Below, in pieces: positions 13,928 to 54,738 of a stretch of 64,000 nt of DNA. The translations under genes were made by a program, and so were the position numbers. The notes below the pieces were generated by a model. It saw only the letters and a program-made list of their open reading frames with translations. It did not search any database and was not told the DNA's origin. The stretch is taken from NCBI GenBank assembly GCA_958296135.2, contig CATQHZ020000001.1, positions 3,712,001 through 3,776,000 of the forward strand. Direction: 5' to 3'. Within the stretch, counting starts at the first letter, position 1. The number at the start of each line of letters is the position of its first letter. The DNA comes from an uncultured Poribacteria bacterium (lineage in GTDB: Bacteria; Poribacteria; WGA-4E; WGA-3G).

Positions 13928-14605
13928 ATGCAAAACAGATTAGTGAAGATTGGTGAAGCCGCCGAGATTCTCGGCACGACACCTGATACGTTACGTCGGT
14001 GGGAGCGTGCTGGCGAATGACTCCCGACTCGCAAGACGAAAGGCGGAACACGCTATTACGCCACCGATACACTCTACGGACTCCATGAATTGGATATGCC
14101 CACCGTCTGCTACGCACGCGTTAGTAGCAGAGAGCAGAAACCTGACCTTGACCGCCAACACGAGGTGTTGGAAGCATACTGCGCTGCAAAAGGCTGGCGC
14201 ACTCAAGTCATCAGGGACCTCGGCTCTGGCATGAACTATTCCAAGAAAGGACTCCGTCAGTTGCTAGAGATGATTCTACGCCGAAATATGAAACGCCTTG
14301 TGCTGACGCATAAGGACAGCCTCCTTCGCTTCGGTGCGGAATTGATATTCGCCCTGTGTGAAATTCAAGGCATCGAAGTTGTGATAATCCATCAAGGCGA
14401 ACGCCCCTCGTTCGAGGAAGAACTCGCCCAAGATGTTCTTGAGATTATCACCGTGTTCTCGGCGCGCCTCTATGGAGCCCGCAGTCATAAGGCACGGAAG
14501 ACAATTGATGCCCTTACAGCGGCACACGTCGCCTCTCAACCGAAGCAGGTTGAACGGGACTTAAACGATGGCACTACGAGCCCAGAAGATAGCACTCAAC
14601 CCTAG
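13928..14605 (+). pseudogene. tnpA: IS607 serine-recombinase transposase with an in-frame nonsense codon
   Basis: MQNRLVKIGEAAEILGTTPDTLRRWERAGE*LPTRKTKGGTRYY...YARVSS; TGA 14018-14020 is in frame and splits the MerR-like HTH from the catalytic domain. Confidence 0.85.
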
Positions 14606-15800
14606 CGAGGAACAAGTTGCGATGTTCTGTCGTCACGTGGATTTCGCCCGTGTCGCCTATAATGCGGCGCACTCGGAATCCCGTGACGCCGCGCGTTGGA
14701 TGTCTGTCTACGACATTAAGAAGGCATTCAACTCTCGCAAACGTGACGTGTTCCCCGAATTCGCGGACTGCTCGCAGAACGCCGGTAAGAATGCCATCCA
14801 CGCCTTTGAGGATGCTCGCCAACGTTGGAAGTCGGGACAGAACAACCGCCCGAAACGGAAGACGCATAAGTCAAAGCCGTCATTCCAGATTGACAACGGC
14901 GTTGGCAGTGTGCGCATCACGGAGGATGGTAAGTATGCTGTCCTTCCGAAAATAGGTACTGTGAGGTTGCGAGAGAAACCCCGCTACGTCGGCGAGATTC
15001 GCCGCGCCTTCGTATCCCGAAAGGAAACCAGCACATGGTATCTCAGCATCCTCGTCGAAATTGATGTCCCTGAACCGCCCGACACGTCAGCCCTCCCCGC
15101 TGCAGGTTGTGATGTCGGCATCTCTGCCCTCGCCACGATGGACGATGGCACTGTCTACGAAAATCCGCGTGCCTTGCGCGTCAATGAACGCAAACTACGC
15201 CGCGCCAATAAGGCACTCGCCCGCAAGACGTTCCTGAGCAAAAACTGGTGGAAGGCGAAGGAACTCCTCGCCCGCCTGCATGCCCGTATAGCAAATGTGC
15301 GAACCGATGCCCATCATCAGGTGACACATCGCATCCTGCAAGGCATCTCTGCACTTGGCATCGAGAGCCTCACCGTGAAAGGTTTGATGAAGAACCGCAA
15401 GTTGAGCAAGGCACTCGCCGATGCAAGTCTTGGCGGCTTCCTCGTCAAACTCAAATATAAGGCGGTTTGGCGCGGCATCCGCGTTGTGTCGGCAGACAAG
15501 TTCTGGCCGTCGACACAACGATGCAGCTCTTGCGGATACGTCAAACGTGGCGAATTCAAACTGACGCTCAAGGACAGAGAATACCACTGCGGTATCTGCG
15601 GATTCGTAGAGGACAGAGACATCAACGCAGCTATAAATCTTCGACAGCTCGCCTCAAGCACAGAGGAGAGTCAAAACGCCTGTGGAGATGCTGTAACACC
15701 AACTCAGGTTGGCTGGCATCAGAACCCGCGTGTGCGCGGAAGAAGCAGGAAACCGCTGACCTCTCAGATACTCGTAGACTTTGCACAGGTTTCCAGATAA
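14568..15800 (+). CDS. tnpB: RNA-guided endonuclease TnpB
   Basis: RuvC D (GCDVGI), E (GIESL), D (DRDINAA); zinc finger CSSCG...CGICG; intact ORF. Confidence 0.93.
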   Translation: MALRAQKIALNPSEEQVAMFCRHVDFARVAYNAAHSESRDAARWMSVYDIKKAFNSRKRDVFPEFADCSQNAGKNAIHAFEDARQRWKSGQNNRPKRKTHKSKPSFQIDNGVGSVRITEDGKYAVLPKIGTVRLREKPRYVGEIRRAFVSRKETSTWYLSILVEIDVPEPPDTSALPAAGCDVGISALATMDDGTVYENPRALRVNERKLRRANKALARKTFLSKNWWKAKELLARLHARIANVRTDAHHQVTHRILQGISALGIESLTVKGLMKNRKLSKALADASLGGFLVKLKYKAVWRGIRVVSADKFWPSTQRCSSCGYVKRGEFKLTLKDREYHCGICGFVEDRDINAAINLRQLASSTEESQNACGDAVTPTQVGWHQNPRVRGRSRKPLTSQILVDFAQVSR

Positions 15801-15856
15801 GTCTACATTTGACGAGATTCTCATAGGTTATGTAGTGCGGTATTATTTGCGCTGCT
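15670..15856 (+). ncRNA. Putative TnpB omega/reRNA (scaffold to the right end plus flanking guide); boundaries approximate
   Basis: GCCTGTGGAG...GAAGCAGGAA motif typical of tnpB 3' ends, overlapping the end of tnpB. Confidence 0.55.
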
Positions 15857-18800
15857 TGACAGCCCCGAACGTTGTCAGGTGCCGGTGCGCAGGCGTGAAC
15901 CCCGCTTTCACTCGCTGCGTCGCGAGTGTCTCACGGTGGCCAGCCAACGACACCTCCTCTAGCCGGTAGGTGTACGCAACGCCGGGCTTCGCCGTTTTAT
16001 CTGTAAAGGCATAGGCACTCCGTTCGCCCGTGGTGCCAGCACCGAGAAGAAGCCGCGGCGTGATGCTGCGGAAGGCCGCCTTGCCCGTTTCACTGCGCAG
16101 GATGCTGAACCCGGCATTGTTCACCTCCGACGCGGTAGCCCACTCGATGACGACACCGGCATCGGTTCGCGCAATCTGGAAGTGTGCCAATTCCACCGGT
16201 AACGGCCCGCCTTCGCGGTAGCCCGGTGTGCCTTTGTCGTCCGCGCGTCCATAATAGACATCCGCACTGAACCGGTTGATGTTCGCGGCGAGCACCCAGC
16301 CCTCCCGCACCTTGCCATCTTCGGCTGTGCCTTTGTCGTAACGCCGAATGAGGGAACTGCGCCCCGATTCGGCCGGGGCGAACGGCAGCTGCCACGCAGG
16401 CGCATCGTGCGTCCGACGATTGCCATCCGTATTCCCAACCTCGTCCACCAACGCGCCGTTTTTATCGGAGAGTTTCAGCGTGAACCCCTCGGCACTCAAG
16501 AATGTGTCGCGTGCACTTTTGATGCGCAGATTCTTCTGATGCAACGCCAGCAGGTTGTAAACGCGCGATGCAGGGAAGACATCCGCCGAGGCGGCACGCG
16601 CATCCCCTGCCACAATCAGCAGCGTCTGATTCGGCTGAATCACCTTTTCCTTCAGCGTCAACGTGACAACCGGTCTGCCCACCAAATCTTCCGAATCCAC
16701 ATTCTGGATGTCCAGCTTCCAGCGGTTCAGGTTCAGTGCCGCCGTTTTGGAGGCATTATACACCTCTATCCACTGCGGCAGGGTGCCGCCCGCTGAATCC
16801 ACCATGATTTCACTCAGGGTGACACTGCCTCTCGGCGTGGCTGCCACCGGTTTCACCGCATCGTTCGGATACCCCGGCGTGCCAGCCGTTGCCGGCGCGT
16901 TCTCTACCGCCCGCTCATACCCGACACCCGTGTAGGCGGCTTGTGTCCATGCCTCTTTGTGGTAACCGACGATGTCCGCCTTGTCGCGCCGCCATACCTT
17001 ACCCTCCGCAAGGGCGGCCCCGGTATTCTCACGCGGATGCTTCGTCGCTCTCAACGGCCAAATGTCCGTCTGGAACGCGTGCCCTTTGTCCGCGATAAAA
17101 GCATCCGTGTCGCGGCCACCCCCGCCAGCGACATCAATCACATGCTCCCCTTTGCCCAGTTGCCCTGTCGCATTCCGGAGCATCAAGAGGAACTGCCCAT
17201 CGCCCGGAAGCGTCAGCTTCGGCGCGATGAAGTAGCGGTGCACCTGACCGGCTTTCGCCCCGCCCGGCACGGTGATGTCCACACCCCCGGCAAGACGCGT
17301 TTTATCGGGCGGCCGCTGCGTCAATAGCAAAATACCGTTAGGCGGAATGCTAAACGGCGCATCCGATGGAAATACCACGAGCGGTACCTCCACTTTCTCC
17401 CCATCGGCGACGATGCTGATGCCCCAATTTTTCAGCGGCACCGCCTCAGCCGTGACATTCCGCAGTTCCACCCAATCGTTCGCGCCCACGGCACCGTTGC
17501 CTATCTCGTTGAAAATCAGCGGCGTGCGGGGAATCTGCGTCGGTTTCACGGGCTGCACTGTCTCTGTAGGGGGAAGAACCAACACGGGCGAACCCAGAAC
17601 AGGCACCTCTTGCGTCAGCGGTGATGCCGGCTGCTGCGGCTGTCCCTGCGAGGGCTGCGCAGTGTCCCCTGGAAACGCGACGATGCCGCCAGGGCCCGTG
17701 TCAGACGTGCTGTCGGTGCCAGTACGTTCGCTTATCACAACCTCACTCACGCCATTGCTGATAGGTGCCGTCTCGGGCACGACAATACGCGGTGCCCAAT
17801 GGATGACACTCGCGACATCCCCCGGCTGCACTTCATAGACGAACGTGACAACAGTAGAATTCGCATCTCGCGCCGCCTGCCAATAGGCGCGCCGCTGATT
17901 CGCCTCCGTTCGTTCCCCTAAATAGAGAACGATATACGGCCGATTCGCGATGTCCACATTCGCGGGGATATCCACATTGTCATCGTCAAACGTAAGTTCC
18001 AGGGCGAGTTCGCTACCCACGGTATACCCCGTCGCCGGGGGCGGCACCACCGCGACATCGGTTATCACCGGCGGCGTATTGTAAATTACCACCAACGGCG
18101 AGGCGGCACCGCTGTAGGTATCACCTGTCAACGTACCAACACTGCCGCTTTTCACTTGAAACGTGTAGGTGCCTTCCGTTGTGACGGTGACAGGCACGGT
18201 GTAGCGGGCACTAGACGCATCGGAAAGCGTTAACTCACCGAACGTCGCCGCCCCTTCACCGGTGACGCTGATGTCTCCCACGCTAAACGCCGCATCGCCA
18301 ACAGTGGCAAGAGACTCCGAGAAATCGAAGGACACTGTCCAATTCGGTTCACTTGTAACGCGCCTTTCCCCTGTCAGCGCGACAGAACTCTCAAACACTA
18401 GCCCAATAGACATCTCGTCTACACCGGTAACGGTGACGGTGAGCCGCTGCGTCGTGCTTAATTGCCGCCCACCCGTCCCACTCGTCGCCGTAATCAAAAC
18501 AATATAGGTGTTGTTACCTGCCGCATCAGCCGGCGCAGGTGTCGTGTGTGCCGCATCCGTCGGATTCTCAAAATCCGGCGACACACGGAACCGCAACACA
18601 CCGCTGCTAAACGTGAACGCGCCGCTATCCGTGCCACTCAGCGAATACCCGGTAATCTCATCGTCCGAATCTACGTCCGTTGCAACGACAGTAACGACAG
18701 CGGTGCTAGCCGGGGTATTTTCCGCGACAGTGACAACATCACTACTGCTGAAAACCGGCGCATCGTTCGGCTGAGATGTCCCCGTAACCGCGTCCGACCA

Positions 18801-21800
18801 GGGGCCCGTGTCCTCCGCATTTGTCGCACGCACCTGAATCTCAAGACTCGTCCCCTGTGTCAACCCGGTTATCGTGGCTGTCGTGCCGGTACCGGTGTGC
18901 GGATGAGCCGTGAAACTCCCGGTGTTCCCCACGCGATACTGCACGTCGTAGTCCGTTATCGCCGGGCCTGTGTTAGTAGGGGCACTCCAACTGACGGTAA
19001 TACTCGTGACTGTCGTGGCAGTGACTTGCGGCGTAGCAGGTTTGCCAGGTGCCTCGGCCACATCCGTAACGGTGACGATGAGCGTCTTACTCACCGATAA
19101 CTGCCGAGCCCCCGTGCCACTCGTCGCCGTGATTGTCACAACATACACGTTATTAGTGGCAGCATTCGCCGGCGTAGGGCTCACCGCATCTGTCGGATTT
19201 TCATAATCCGGGGCTGACGCAAACGTCACCGCGCCAGTGGACGCATTGATGGAGAACTTCGCGCTATCCGCGCCACCGCTAATCGTATAACTCACCGCAT
19301 CGGTAGTCACCGTATCCGCATCGGTGGCGGTAGCGGTTGTCACAGCAGTGCTATTCTCGGCAACATTGAACGCTGTCGTGCTACTGCTGAAAACCGGCGC
19401 GACATTCGCGGGCGTTGTCCCATTTTGACTCACCCAAGCACTCTCGCCTTCAGCATTTGTCGCGCGAACTCGCACATTATAGGCTGTCCCCGCTGTCAAC
19501 CCCGTGAGTGTGGCAGAGACAGTCGTACCCGTATGTGTCCAAGTGCTCCACATCGTAGCCGTGCCTAACTTATACTGCACATCGTAGCCGCTCAGGGCCG
19601 GCGTCCCTGTAGGAATAACTGGCGCAGTCCAACTCAGGGGCAACTCTGTCGGTTCGGAAGCCGCAGGGGTGACGGTTAACGCCGTGGGAACAGGCGGCGG
19701 CTCAGCCTCATCCGTAACGGTGACGATGAGCGTCTTGCTCACCGATAACTGCCGAGCCCCCGTGCCACTCGTCGCCCTAATTGTCACAACATACTCATTA
19801 TTGTTGGCGGCATTCACCGGCGTAGGGCTCACCGCATCTGTCGGATTTTCAAAATCCGGGGCTGACGCAAACGTCACCGCGCCAGTGGACGCATTGATGG
19901 AGAACTTCGCGCTATCCGCGCCACCGCTAATCGCATAACTCACCGCATCGCCGCTATCACTATCGGTGGCGGTAGCGGTTGTCACAGCAGTGCTATTCTC
20001 GGCAACATTGAACGCTGTCGTGCTACTGCTGAAAACCGGCGCGACATGCGTGGGCGTTGTCCCATTTTGACTCACCCAAGCACTCTCGCCTTCAGCATTT
20101 GTCGCGCGAACTCGCACATTATAGGCTGTCCCCGCTGTCAACCCCGTGAGCGTGGCAGAGGTAGTCGTACCGGAATGTGCCCAAGTGCTCCACATCGTAG
20201 CCGTGCCTAACTTATACTGCACATCGTAGCCGCTCAGGGCCGGTGTCCCTGTAGGAATAACTGGCGCAGTCCAACTCAGGGGCAACTCTGTCGGTTCGGA
20301 AGCCGCAGGGGTGACGGTTAACGCCGTGGGAACAGGCGGCGGCTCATTCACATCCGTAACAGTCACGATGAGCGTCTTACTCACCGATAACTGCCGAGCC
20401 CCCGTGCCACTCGTCGCCGTGATTGTCACAACATACACGTTATTAGTGGCAGCATTCGCCGGCGTAGGGCTCACCGCATCTGTCGGATTTTCATAATCCG
20501 GGGCTGACGCAAACGTCACCGCGCCAGTGGACGCATTGATGGAGAACTTCGCGCTATCCGCGCCACCGCTAATCGTATAACTCACCGCATCGGTAGTCAC
20601 CGTATCCGCATCGGTGGCGGTGGCAGTTGTCACAGCAGTGCTATTCTCGGCAACATTGAACGCTGTCGTGCTACTGCTGAAAACCGGCGCGACATTCGCG
20701 GGCGTTGTCCCATTTTGACTCACCCAAGCACTCTCGCCTTCAGCATTTGTCGCGCGAACTCGCACATTATAGGCTGTCCCCGCTGTCAACCCCGTGAGTG
20801 TGGCAGAGGCAGTCGTACCCGTATGTGTCCAATCGCTCCACATCGTAGCCGTGCCTAACTTATACTGCACATCGTAGCCGCTCAGGGCCGGTGTCCCTGT
20901 GGGAATAACTGGCGCAGTCCAACTCAGGGGCAACTCTGTCGGTTTGGAAGTCGCAGGGGTGACGGTTAACGCCGTGGGGACAGGCGGCGGCTCATTCACA
21001 TCCGTGACAGTCACCGTCAGCGTCTGCGTGGCAGTCTGGGAAGGACTACTACCGCTGGTAGCCGTCACCACAACGATATATTCGTTGTTGCTCGCCGCAT
21101 TTGCCGGCGTGGTACTCACGACATCTTGCGGATTTTCATAGTCCGGGACAAAAGAAGAAGCAAATCGCAGCTTATTGGTGTCAGCGATTTGGAATCTTGC
21201 CCTATCAACACCAGCCGTAGTTGATACGGCATAGGTGATCGACGTATCTATGTCCGTATTGGCATCCGTGGCACTCAAGGTCGCGATGTTTGCCGTGGCA
21301 GCCGTATTTTCCGCTACGGAGGCTGTGGCCGTTGCAGCAGAAAACGCCGGCGGCGCATCGTAATAGACATCGACTAACCATGTGCTGTGAGCCCAGACAA
21401 CAGCATTACCGGCCCCAGGGTCTATTCCCGTGAACTGAAACAGCTGAGTCTGAAAAGTGCCTCTTCCACTCGGCGTAAGCGTCGCTGTCCAGACTTTTTG
21501 ATCGGTGGCACTCCGCGTGGGCGCGGACAGGGTAGCATTGCCATTTCCAGCGAGAGTCTGAAAGTTGCTTGCCGATAACCCGCTGACTACCGCCGAAAAA
21601 GTTACTGTGAGTGTAACCGGGCCGGTTATCCTTTGATATGTCTCAGGAGTCATTGTCGCGGGGGGGGTATAAGTGTAATCCCCATGATGCTTGGCTCCGG
21701 ATAGTGCCACGGTAAAGCTTACGCTCGCGGCGTGTGCGGTTGACGTTGCCATCAATACACACAGCAGGAGCACCAGGCGTGTCAGAGACTTCGTTAAAAC

Positions 21801-21868
21801 CCTAAACTTAACTCGTGTTGAGGGGGGGGGGTAGTCTTTTTATCATGTTTCGCCATAACATTCATCAT
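15843..21868 (-). CDS. Giant secreted adhesin-like protein (cadherin, FN3 and lamin-tail domains), frameshifted at a poly-C tract in the signal-peptide region
   Basis: 1976-aa ORF 15843..21773 with PDYENP cadherin motifs, LSWTAP..YDVQY FN3 motifs and NEIGN/SEIMVDS..QWIEVYN lamin-tail motifs; AGAGGAGA RBS and ATG at 21868 lie one nt out of frame across C10. Confidence 0.8.
19064..21001 (-). repeat. Three near-identical tandem FN3+cadherin units (642-648 nt)
   Basis: Unit boundaries at about 19064, 19712, 20354 and 21002; near-identical DNA. Confidence 0.9.
21822..21831 (-). repeat. Poly-G10 (C10 on the coding strand) slippage tract
   Basis: Directly visible between the adhesin ATG and its signal peptide. 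Confidence 0.85.
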
Positions 21869-21919
21869 TATCTCCTCTATAAATATTTAGCTTCGGTGAC
21901 GCAGTTTCATCTCTAGGCC

Positions 21920-22390
21920 CTGTAGGAGAGACCTCCTGGTCTCGATGTCCCCGGTAGGAGAGCCCTCCCGCGTCTCAATGTCCCACCGTAGGAGAGACCT
22001 CCCGGTCTCGATGTCCCCGGTAGGAGAGACCTCCCGCGTCTCGATGCAGTAGGAGGGACATCCCTGTCCCGATGCAGTAGGAGGGACATCCCGCGTCTCG
22101 ATGCAGACAGAAACTAGACACCTCAGCGAAGTTAACAAACATAATACCATAAAACGCCGAAAAACGTCAAGTTTTTTTTATAAATCGCCTCGCGCGAACC
22201 GTCAGAAAGCATCGAGACCAGGAGGGCGCGCCTACGGTAGGAGGGACATCCTTGTCCCGATACACAACAAATCGAGACCGGGAGGGCGCGCCTACGGTAG
22301 GAGGGACATCCTTGTCCCGATACACAACAAATCGAGACCGGGAGGGCGCGCCTACCGGGAAAATCGAGACCAGGAGGTCTCTCCTACCGG
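21920..22390. repeat. REP cluster, family A (GTAGGAGAGACCTCCCGGTCTCGATG / GTAGGAGGGACATCCCTGTCCCGAT), downstream of RAYT
   Basis: Many GTAG-headed imperfect palindromes in both orientations, including a ~60-nt tandem unit at 22210-22355. Confidence 0.9.
22141..22170 (-). promoter_or_regulatory. sigma70-type promoter (copy 1) facing the adhesin
   Basis: TTGACG-18 nt-TATTAT with TG extension, inside the 127-bp repeat 22099-22225. Confidence 0.6.
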
Positions 22391-22396
22391 GCAATG

Positions 22397-22870
22397 TCAG
22401 TCCATCTTGAATTTGCATTGCCAATACGGATAATCCTTTGCTTCTTGGACGAGCCCGCGTCGCACTGGGTTCTCGTAACAGTAGCGGATAATGGCGTTCA
22501 ACGATGCGTCCCGGCGAATGCCATGGTCATAATAGGTTTCTTGCCAAAGAGAACCGCGTCTACCTAACAGCGCGTTAATCTGCTTCGCCGTAAAATTCTG
22601 CAAGGATTTCATGACGTTTGATAAAGTCTGTTTATGTCCTAGTTGAATCACGGCGTGAACATGGTCTGGCATCACCATGATGCAGTGCCATGTTAACCGT
22701 TCGTCAGTTTCTAGCCAATCAAAGCATTGAAAAATAATGTTTGCAACGTCAGCATTAGCAAGAATCGGTTTTCTGTTCAACGTTGCGAACGTGAGAGCAT
22801 AGTATGTTCCCGGTATAGAGCGTCTACCTTTTCGCAATTGCCGATATCCTCGGCGCGGTGTTTCATTCAT
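22397..22870 (-). CDS. rayT: REP-associated tyrosine transposase (RAYT/TnpA-REP)
   Basis: YYALTFAT, HUH motif MPDHVH, LWQETYYDHGIR, Y1 motif YCYENPVRRGL; flanked by REP arrays. Confidence 0.92.
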   Translation of the reverse strand: MNETPRRGYRQLRKGRRSIPGTYYALTFATLNRKPILANADVANIIFQCFDWLETDERLTWHCIMVMPDHVHAVIQLGHKQTLSNVMKSLQNFTAKQINALLGRRGSLWQETYYDHGIRRDASLNAIIRYCYENPVRRGLVQEAKDYPYWQCKFKMD

Positions 22871-22879
22871 AGCCTTTCC

Positions 22880-23300
22880 CTTAGTAGGCGCGCCCCCGGT
22901 TAGTAAGCACCCCCATCCGGTCTCGATGCAGGAAGCGGCACATCCCGGGCCCGACCTGTCCCGATGCAGGAGGCGGCACATCCTCGTCCCGATGCAGGAG
23001 GAGAGCCCTCCCGCGTCTCGATGTCCCCGGTAGGAGAGACCTCCCGCGTCTCGATGTCCCACCGTAGGAGGGACATCCCGGTCTCGATGTCCCACCGTAG
23101 GAGGGACATCCCGGTCTCGATGCAGGAGGGACATCCCTGTCCCGATGCAGACAGAAACTAGACACCTCAGCGAAGTTAACAAACATAATACCATAAAACG
23201 CCGAAAAATGTCAAGTTTTTTTCATAAATCGCCTCGCGCGAACCGTAGGAAAGCATCGAGACCAGGAGGTCTCTCCTACCGGGGAAATTGAGACGCGGGA
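22880..23300. repeat. REP cluster, family A, upstream of RAYT
   Basis: Tandem GTAGGAG.GAC.TCCC..TC.CGATG units. Confidence 0.9.
23185..23214 (-). promoter_or_regulatory. sigma70-type promoter (copy 2) facing rayT
   Basis: TTGACA-18 nt-TATTAT inside the 127-bp repeat 23143-23269. Confidence 0.65.
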
Positions 23301-54405: not shown

Positions 54406-54594
54406 CAAAAATCTCCTTTCTCGCACCATGGCGAGCAGTTAAAGAAGCCAGACGCAAAGGCGCGCTTTGGCAGCGCGCAGACAAGAAACTGCGCCTGTCT
54501 TGTGCAACAGAAATAGCCCGTAACGAGATAGAACTCGTACGGGATTGAAGGCAAAACGACGATGGCTACCGACGTTGCCTTGTGAAAATAATGA

Positions 54595-54738
54595 TTAACG
54601 TATGTTACGGGGGGGGGTAAATCGCCCTAACCGATTGTCAAAACAACCGATGGCCTGTGAGGGTGCGAAGGCGCGACACGATGCACTACAGAGGGGTATC
54701 ACCTTTCCGATGTTACGATGGATATGTGCGTTATGCAT
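54595..54738 (-). other. Candidate leader ORF containing a C9 tract
   Basis: ATG 54738 to TAA 54595, passing through C9 (G9 at 54609-54617); lies between the promoter and the lipoprotein gene. Confidence 0.4.

Follow-up and report, generated by a model that had tools for sequence, protein, structure and literature searches.

The locus considered here raises the question of why the gene for a very large secreted protein should have no start codon joined to its own signal peptide. It lies in a 64,000-nucleotide (nt) stretch of the genome of an uncultured Poribacteria bacterium (assembly GCA_958296135.2, contig CATQHZ020000001.1, positions 3,712,001 to 3,776,000), hereafter called the window. 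On the minus strand of the window, a run of ten cytosines (C10; C1:3733822-3733831 in genome coordinates) separates a ribosome-binding site and two start codons from a long open reading frame (ORF) that encodes a protein with cadherin, FN3 and lamin-tail (LTD) domains. We consider that this run is probably a slipped-strand contingency locus, that is, a heritable and reversible on/off switch of a secreted cadherin/FN3/LTD surface protein, and we place the probability of this reading at roughly 0.68.

All elements of the tract locus were read directly on the minus strand (Table 1). An earlier note on the same DNA had described a Shine-Dalgarno-like site, AGAGGAGA, followed by ATG 21868, the C10 run and an early TAA, and this description proved to be correct base for base. 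The TGA TAA that it had reported 5' of the tract, with no in-frame ATG ahead of the hydrophobic stretch, was likewise found, at 21845-21840. From 21839, the long frame continues for 1998 codons to the stop at 15845-15843, with no other stop in between. Between the TAA (21840) and GTG 21773 this frame contains no ATG, GTG or TTG, and the ORF listing gives 15843..21773, with 1976 aa and GTG 21773 as the start. Twelve codons specifying a basic peptide stand between ATG 21868 and C10, and the rest of the signal peptide follows the run. The predicted signal peptide is of the Sec type (signal peptidase I), with a K/R-rich N-region, a hydrophobic core and small residues at positions -3 and -1, the cleavage site being judged by eye on the translation; its N-region is unusually long, at ~30 residues. 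The complete basic/hydrophobic/AxA signal peptide, continuous with the 1976-aa ORF, that the earlier note had proposed was recognized in the translation, where the AxA reads A-H-A, and the second tract, C8, is in frame as had been claimed.

The length of the run was varied in silico with a script, and the joined frames were read off. At C8 and C11, ATG 21868 was joined to the long ORF; at C9 and C12, ATG 21861 was joined to it; and at C7, C10 and C13, neither was. On lengths make up two of the three classes, since the run is preceded by a start codon in each of two frames, and C10 is the sole off class. The proposal that C11 and C8 are on lengths was thus reproduced by computation, although it was incomplete, as C9 and C12, which act through ATG 21861, had been overlooked. 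The C10 product ends after about 12-24 codons, according to the ATG used. The tract is a homopolymer of a length prone to slippage (~7 or more), it is located within the coding region, 12 codons after ATG 21868, and changes in its repeat number (C8-C12) toggled the in silico product between full-length and truncated forms.

According to the mechanism that we propose, slippage during replication would alter the C run by one base. A run of C11 or C8 would join the first ATG to the signal peptide, and one of C9 or C12 would join the second ATG to it. A run of C10 would join neither, so that ribosomes would yield only a peptide of 17-24 residues and the protein would not be exported. Slippage as the cause, the reversibility and rate of switching, the idea that both ATGs are used and the part played by the protein in host contact are all elements that we infer.

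The gene could also be translated from GTG 21773 or from another start after the run, in which case the upstream ATGs and the run would play no part. This GTG is the first start of the long ORF in the ORF listing, and the earlier note had named it as the alternative to a switch. It is not preceded by a purine-rich ribosome-binding site, however; the product would start within the hydrophobic core, without the basic stretch; and the codon is GTC in the orthologue of the congeneric genome G002. For these reasons, a start at this GTG is highly improbable. In addition, the sequence from the run to the GTG is conserved as protein between genomes G000 and G001, which also argues against a start after the run.

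The length of the run in the sequence data was examined in Logan contigs of four public sequencing runs. Each of them covered 20915-21979 in one piece, with 0 differences and 0 gaps, and reproduced C10 at a word depth of ~23-129; no insertion or deletion at 21822-31 was present among the matches listed for these contigs. The four runs derive from one sample, probably the source of the assembly, and such contigs drop minor variants. Since the contigs of four runs reproduce C10, an assembly slip at this position is unlikely. A broader artefact, in which C10 results from a sequencing or assembly error in the homopolymer and the actual run is in frame, is favored by the fact that long G/C homopolymers are error-prone on several platforms, that no platform is recorded for the four runs and that these may be the assembly's own data. 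It is opposed by the independent k-mer assembly of each of the four runs, which gave C10, and by the genome-wide observations described below.

The same gene family was then considered in relatives, where five members were available from three congeneric genomes, with orthologues ~58% identical. No member of the family was found outside the genus at strong scores among 112 genomes of the taxonomic family, and a metagenome scan for further orthologues gave 1 weak locus among 100 pattern matches. All five members shared the same layout of a ribosome-binding site, an ATG with a basic peptide, a C run and a signal peptide, and the lengths of the run at this site were 10, 9, 8, 9 and 9. GGAG-type sites were present 5' of the ATG in the orthologues as well, and TTGACA...TAT(C/T)AT was found ~100-150 nt 5' of their ATG. 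The N-terminus read from the first start frame (M-N-V...K-basic; M-N-V/I in the family) was kept in the orthologues, and on either side of the run the encoded sequence (N-terminus and signal peptide, respectively) was conserved across the five members, the hydrophobic core being kept in the database relatives too. All five were out of frame, and in four of them the observed length was the sole off class. The same layout was found in a giant cadherin gene of this genome (a 6181-codon frame with C8 at C1:2331378), which was also off; together with the five family members, it was exactly one base short of the first-ATG frame.

A protein database queried with the first 200 residues returned 16 hits. 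One was the database's own call of the window protein (P0002), which starts 63 residues into the open frame, and another was unrelated (named by its source as a glycosyl hydrolase), so that 14 relatives remained. Four of these (P0004, P0005, P0009 and P0011) were on, starting upstream at M-L-... and reading through PP(P) into the signal peptide; this second-frame start was the only on form seen in the relatives. The other ten began inside or after the hydrophobic core, as does the window's own gene call, and look off, a state derived from gene-caller starts and not from DNA. The first 29 residues of P0011 (on) matched the product that a G002 paralogue would have at C8, whereas G002 itself carries C9 and is off. 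In addition, P0005 (on) and P0013 (off) fell within one subgroup. Different assemblies thus carry the same genes in both states, and repeat number differs between close relatives to give on and off alleles, with the reservation that the off calls in the database are gene-caller starts. Among shorter database entries, no N-terminal fragment proteins were found at E <= 1e-10.

The off state of this gene and of the other four family members of the genus might also be a sign of decay, the gene being a pseudogene frameshifted in the run without any switching role, and the presence of mobile elements on both sides (TnpB and a REP-associated transposase) would fit such a history. However, the frame has stayed open over its 1998 codons, and orthologues that are ~58% identical have kept the start region, the peptide encoded before the run and the signal peptide, which makes decay unlikely. 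Intact on forms occur in the relatives, and decay leaves unexplained the breaking of frames on G/C9 but not on G/C7 runs that is reported below. Taken with these points, decay appears quite improbable as the explanation of the locus.

The uniform frame offset brings in a further explanation, namely that the off-length DNA is the normal state and that the frame is shifted at the C run in some of the transcripts or by some of the ribosomes, either through transcriptional slippage of RNA polymerase or through a -1 ribosomal shift on C CCC CCC. The outcome would be steady low-level expression, which could be combined with switching at the DNA level. Such decoding would agree with the five family members and the giant cadherin gene all being one base short of the first-ATG frame, with the fact that both +1 and -1 slips at C10 give a translatable message, and with the modal length 9 being in frame in only 1/23 intragenic runs. 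RNA polymerase slippage is efficient at runs of ~9, the length of the RNA-DNA hybrid. Against it, a programmed site would be expected to have a conserved out-of-frame layout and, for a -1 frameshift, an RNA structure located 5-9 nt 3' of the slippery site that stimulates the shift. The layout is conserved in 5/5 genus members, but 4/14 database relatives are in frame in the DNA, so that it is not fixed. No conserved structure was found 3' of the run (the consensus fold of the five sequences was -4.1 kcal/mol and was not supported by covariation, the term being +0.12; the single-sequence fold had z = -0.91), and a -1 frameshift stimulator was therefore ruled out. Moreover, the broken genes of the genome require +1 as well as -1 corrections, and the bacterial cases of RNA-level decoding of which we know use A or T runs. 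The in-frame alleles of the relatives make it unlikely that recoding at the site is obligatory; RNA-level decoding in general also seems unlikely to explain the locus.

The earlier note had proposed a genome-wide scan for G/C tracts of 8 or more near the 5' ends of secreted-protein genes, and long G/C runs were counted across the genome. The genome comprises 5.19 Mb in 4 contigs, with a chromosome of 54.4% G+C. On the chromosome, G/C runs of lengths 8, 9 and 10 numbered 28, 43 and 10, while 12.9, 2.1 and 0.35 were expected from a log-linear fit to lengths 3-7, and two fifth-order Markov simulations gave 17-19, 3-6 and 0. The run-length distribution had a second mode at 9, and the genome total was ~80 G/C runs of 8 or more. 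The abundance of these runs is therefore not due to chance, as 43 G/C9 and 10 G/C10 runs stand against 2-6 and 0 expected. In the genus, exact G9 runs numbered 44, 20 and 29, and in three other genera 46, 28 and 17; several genomes of the same taxonomic family had none, so that the trait is patchy. Among the side observations on composition, a G-rich low-complexity stretch of the chromosome (C1:3588040-3588121) contains several runs of 8-12, contig C4 carries C17 and C88 runs, and contig C2 (144 kb) has a G+C content of 36.8% vs 54.4% in the chromosome.

Effects on reading frames were counted for runs flanked on each side by 100 or more open codons. G/C7 runs were in frame in 28 cases and out of frame in none, A/T runs of 8-9 were in frame in 28 and out in 8, and G/C9 runs were in frame in 1 and out in 14. 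Thus, the frame breaks are specific to long G/C runs. Intragenic G/C9 runs were in frame in 1/15 cases in this genome and in 0/8 in G002 (1/23 together), and the frame corrections needed were of both signs (+1/-1 of 10/4 in this genome and 4/4 in G002). These counts also bear on the artefact: A/T 8-9 runs are mostly in frame; the assembly contains G/C runs of 10, 11, 12, 17 and 88, which indicates that run lengths are not capped; corrections of both signs are required; and the same pattern was found in a fragmented relative of 210 contigs as well as in two near-complete ones. In view of all this, an error in the length of C10 is very unlikely. Automatic on/off calls were ambiguous for tracts at 5' ends, where any GTG or TTG opens a frame, and only cases inspected by hand were used.

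Gene classes were assigned by Pfam on the frames flanking the tracts, for 26 tracts of this genome and 24 of the 29 G9 tracts of G002. DNA-methyltransferase or restriction genes accounted for 16/26 tracts in this genome and 12/24 in G002, and LTD/FN3/LRR/cadherin surface proteins for 3/26 and 3/24. The run lay upstream of housekeeping genes in 4/26 and 0/24, and there was no Pfam match in 3/26 and 9/24. The runs are thus over-represented, and 19/26 (this genome) and 15/24 (G002) of the classified tracts belong to surface or restriction-modification classes, the two in which contingency genes are classically found; the runs are concentrated in methyltransferase/restriction genes and LTD surface-protein genes. 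The matches of the former in this genome were N6_N4_Mtase, Eco57I, TypeIII_RM_meth, Type ISP and DUF1156. In a seven-copy methyltransferase family, the copy with G10 was intact (485 aa), while at least four copies with G9 were split at the run, one base short, and paralogues with the same flanks differed by one base in run length. Fifteen homologues of the methyltransferase family from other genomes had a segment of equal length at the site, without the run. A mobile switch cassette, in which the run is inserted together with its flanks, was ruled out for the family by these homologues; the methyltransferase run arose in place, in a variable linker.

For an analysis of sequence context, all runs were oriented as G and reduced to 56 context families. 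TTAA (often as GTTAAC or CTTAAC) was present within 20 nt on the 5' side in 27/56 families and on the 3' side in 6/56, against a genome background of 4.4%, with the motif counts inflated by a multi-copy non-coding family (C1:853308) that supplies part of the TTAAC signal. In the shared context, TTAA or GTTAAC stands 8-15 nt before the G run, and a stop triplet (TAA/TGA/TAG) follows the run directly in 20/56 families. The context is independent of the sense strand of the gene, and G002 is alike in this respect. As the footprint of an inserted cassette, it was ruled out at least for the methyltransferase family. Within the window, the context was found at 21797-21835 and 54580-54625. The second of these positions contains the third long run of the window, a G9 (C1:3766609) in TTAAC context with no long ORF across it, of which there is a paralogous copy at C1:4424607. 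The multi-copy element at C1:853308 occurs with nine further copies, which have conserved flanks and a C8, C9 or C10 run. Its candidate small ORF was dropped, as the 'protein' looks non-coding (R/P/A-rich, with no Pfam match); the copy that was inspected has its run ~0.6 kb 5' of a gene for a secreted protein with a clear signal peptide.

The earlier proposal of slipped-strand on/off switching in the signal-peptide region of a host-associated environmental bacterium, with the gene now off, is thus supported by a conserved site with variable length, by the relatives and by the genome-wide runs. Several points weigh against it. The length data come from contigs of one sample, probably the assembly's own source, and the off state of the ten database relatives was taken from gene-caller starts. 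Of the 23 intragenic runs of the modal length 9, only one is in frame. MutS was found in 31/31 genomes and MutL in 30/31, including this genome and its relatives and irrespective of whether they were rich or poor in runs; loss of mismatch repair was therefore ruled out as the cause of run abundance, and a high rate of slippage is not attributable to it as in Campylobacter. Finally, all five family members and the giant cadherin gene are off, and four of the five family members are at the sole off class, which random phase would rarely give. The all-off pattern therefore needs selection for the off state, a toggle between two lengths, or RNA-level decoding. It is possible that off is selected in the sponge, with rare on cells, and it is also possible that the run toggles between two neighboring lengths around a mutational resting length of 9.

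A more extended version of the switch would place the run in a contingency system that extends over the genome, is off by default and is peculiar to certain Poribacteria lineages. Either phase would be selected so that the mutational resting length is off, which would amount to rare-on bet hedging of the methylome and of host-facing eukaryote-like surface proteins, or a context-dependent mechanism of slippage or decoding, not yet described, would operate. This version is suggested by the ~80 runs with a mode of 9, their strand-specific TTAA context and the 1/23 in frame at the mode; we regard it as tentative and rather doubtful.

As for the protein itself, Pfam identified the domains of the eukaryote-like cadherin/FN3/LTD surface proteins of sponge symbionts (fn3, 3.9e-48; Cadherin, 5.8e-38; LTD, 1.6e-14), while an NCBIfam search of the protein gave no match. 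Poribacteria are sponge symbionts, and cadherin/FN3-type 'eukaryote-like' proteins are a known feature of them, so that 'adhesin', the name used in the earlier note, is a reasonable label; the domains were found, and adhesion itself is deduced from them. The gene holds three ~645-nt tandem copies of a cadherin+FN3 module, with 80-85% protein identity, across which short-read contigs break or join.

Regarding the neighborhood, the surface-protein gene is directly followed downstream by an IS200/IS605-type gene for the RNA-guided endonuclease TnpB. On the other side, a REP-associated tyrosine transposase gene lies between arrays of palindromic repeats with units of 28-33 nt, in which word depth is ~10-20x that of the flanking single-copy DNA, which indicates multiple copies of the unit, either in the genome or in the community. 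On the opposite strand, a weak sigma-70-like match directed away from the gene includes G10 in its first hexamer and spacer; this may be due to chance.

Table 1. Coordinates in the window of the elements of the C10 locus and of neighboring features.
Feature	Coordinates	Strand	Basis or remark
Shine-Dalgarno-like AGAGGAGA	21878-21871	-	Direct reading
First start frame, ATG ATG (21868, 21865; same frame)	21863..21868	-	In frame with the ORF at C8 or C11
Second start codon, ATG in the +1 frame (M-L-W-R-N...)	21859..21861	-	In frame with the ORF at C9 or C12
TGA TAA closing the long frame 5' of the tract	21845-21840	-	Direct reading and translation
C10 homopolymer, candidate switch (G10 on the + strand)	21831-21822	-	Direct reading; contigs of four runs identical
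Rest of the signal peptide in the long frame	21729..21821	-	Basic stretch, hydrophobic core (L-V-L-L-L-C-V-L-M), then A-H-A
TAA ending the 24-codon off-frame peptide of ATG 21868	21796-21794	-	Translation
Mature protein	15843..21728	-	N-terminal family-specific domain, 5 cadherin, 4 FN3, 2 lamin-tail (LTD), C-terminal domain without assignment
Second run, C8, in frame (T-P-P-A)	21660..21667	-	Translation; not conserved in orthologues
Best sigma-70-like promoter match upstream	22141..22170	-	TTGACG-18-TATTAT, 10/12; consensus match only
Opposite-strand sigma-70-like match	21818-21846	+	TTGAGG-17-TATCAT, 9/12
Tandem cadherin+FN3 modules	~19100-21000	-	
TnpB endonuclease gene	14568-15800	+	guided_TnpB, 3.3e-70
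Palindromic repeat array	21918-22391		
REP-associated tyrosine transposase gene	22397-23194	-	NF047646, 1.6e-36
Palindromic repeat array	22920-23150		
Third long run, G9	54609-54617	+	

If the switching is real, a population of symbionts that looks clonal would be a mosaic of surface types and methylation types; besides the surface-protein gene, the genome has about two dozen candidate switchable DNA methyltransferases. Such a mosaic would be relevant to the way in which sponges distinguish symbionts from food, and to defence against phages in the sponge. Annotation would be affected too, where such genes are easily dismissed as pseudogenes.

The mechanism is a classic one, and the new instances are a phylum of sponge symbionts, a eukaryote-like surface protein and a layout with two starts. 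Simple-repeat phase variation is mostly seen as typical of host-adapted pathogens and vertebrate commensals; the same switch logic is suggested here for an uncultivated sponge symbiont, on a cadherin/fibronectin protein thought to mediate host contact. In the literature covered, partly by title and abstract, we found no work linking Poribacteria or sponge symbionts with phase variation. In lic1-type loci of Haemophilus influenzae, several ATGs in different frames precede a slippery repeat, and different repeat numbers engage different starts, which could give graded expression, as might be the case for the two ATGs of the present locus. However, the repeat there is a tetranucleotide in a lipooligosaccharide synthesis gene, and here it is a homopolymer.

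The poly-G/C runs of Campylobacter jejuni resemble those described here in number, with dozens of runs per genome, in a mode near 9 and in their location in surface-structure and restriction-modification genes. To our knowledge, Campylobacter is without MutS and MutL, whereas the present genome, of 5 Mb and 54% G+C, has kept both; moreover, most of its runs lie in methyltransferases, and at the modal length hardly any is in frame. For strain NCTC11168, 29 loci with runs of 7 or more are reported (PMC4965091). Phasevarions, in which repeats drive the on/off switching of Type III or Type I methyltransferases (PMC5909438, PMC7383803), are resembled in the location of at least 16/26 tracts in methyltransferase/restriction genes, including Type III Mod-like, Type IIG (Eco57I-like) and Type ISP genes. 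The concept, however, would fit the neighboring set of candidate switches and not the surface-protein gene.

The closest analogue is the G run of gonococcal pilC. In Neisseria gonorrhoeae, frameshifts in a homo-G tract within the signal-peptide region of pilC switch the gene (PMC5354566). In both cases a mononucleotide G/C run is located where the signal peptide of a surface or adhesion protein is encoded, and in the present one, too, frameshifts would act as the on/off event. They differ in that switching in the present case is deduced from the DNA, and that here two start codons in two frames precede the run and leave two of the three length classes on. The hosts of the two genes also differ, pilC belonging to a human pathogen and the present gene to an uncultivated sponge symbiont, as do their products, a pilus tip protein in the former and a cadherin/FN3/LTD protein in the latter.

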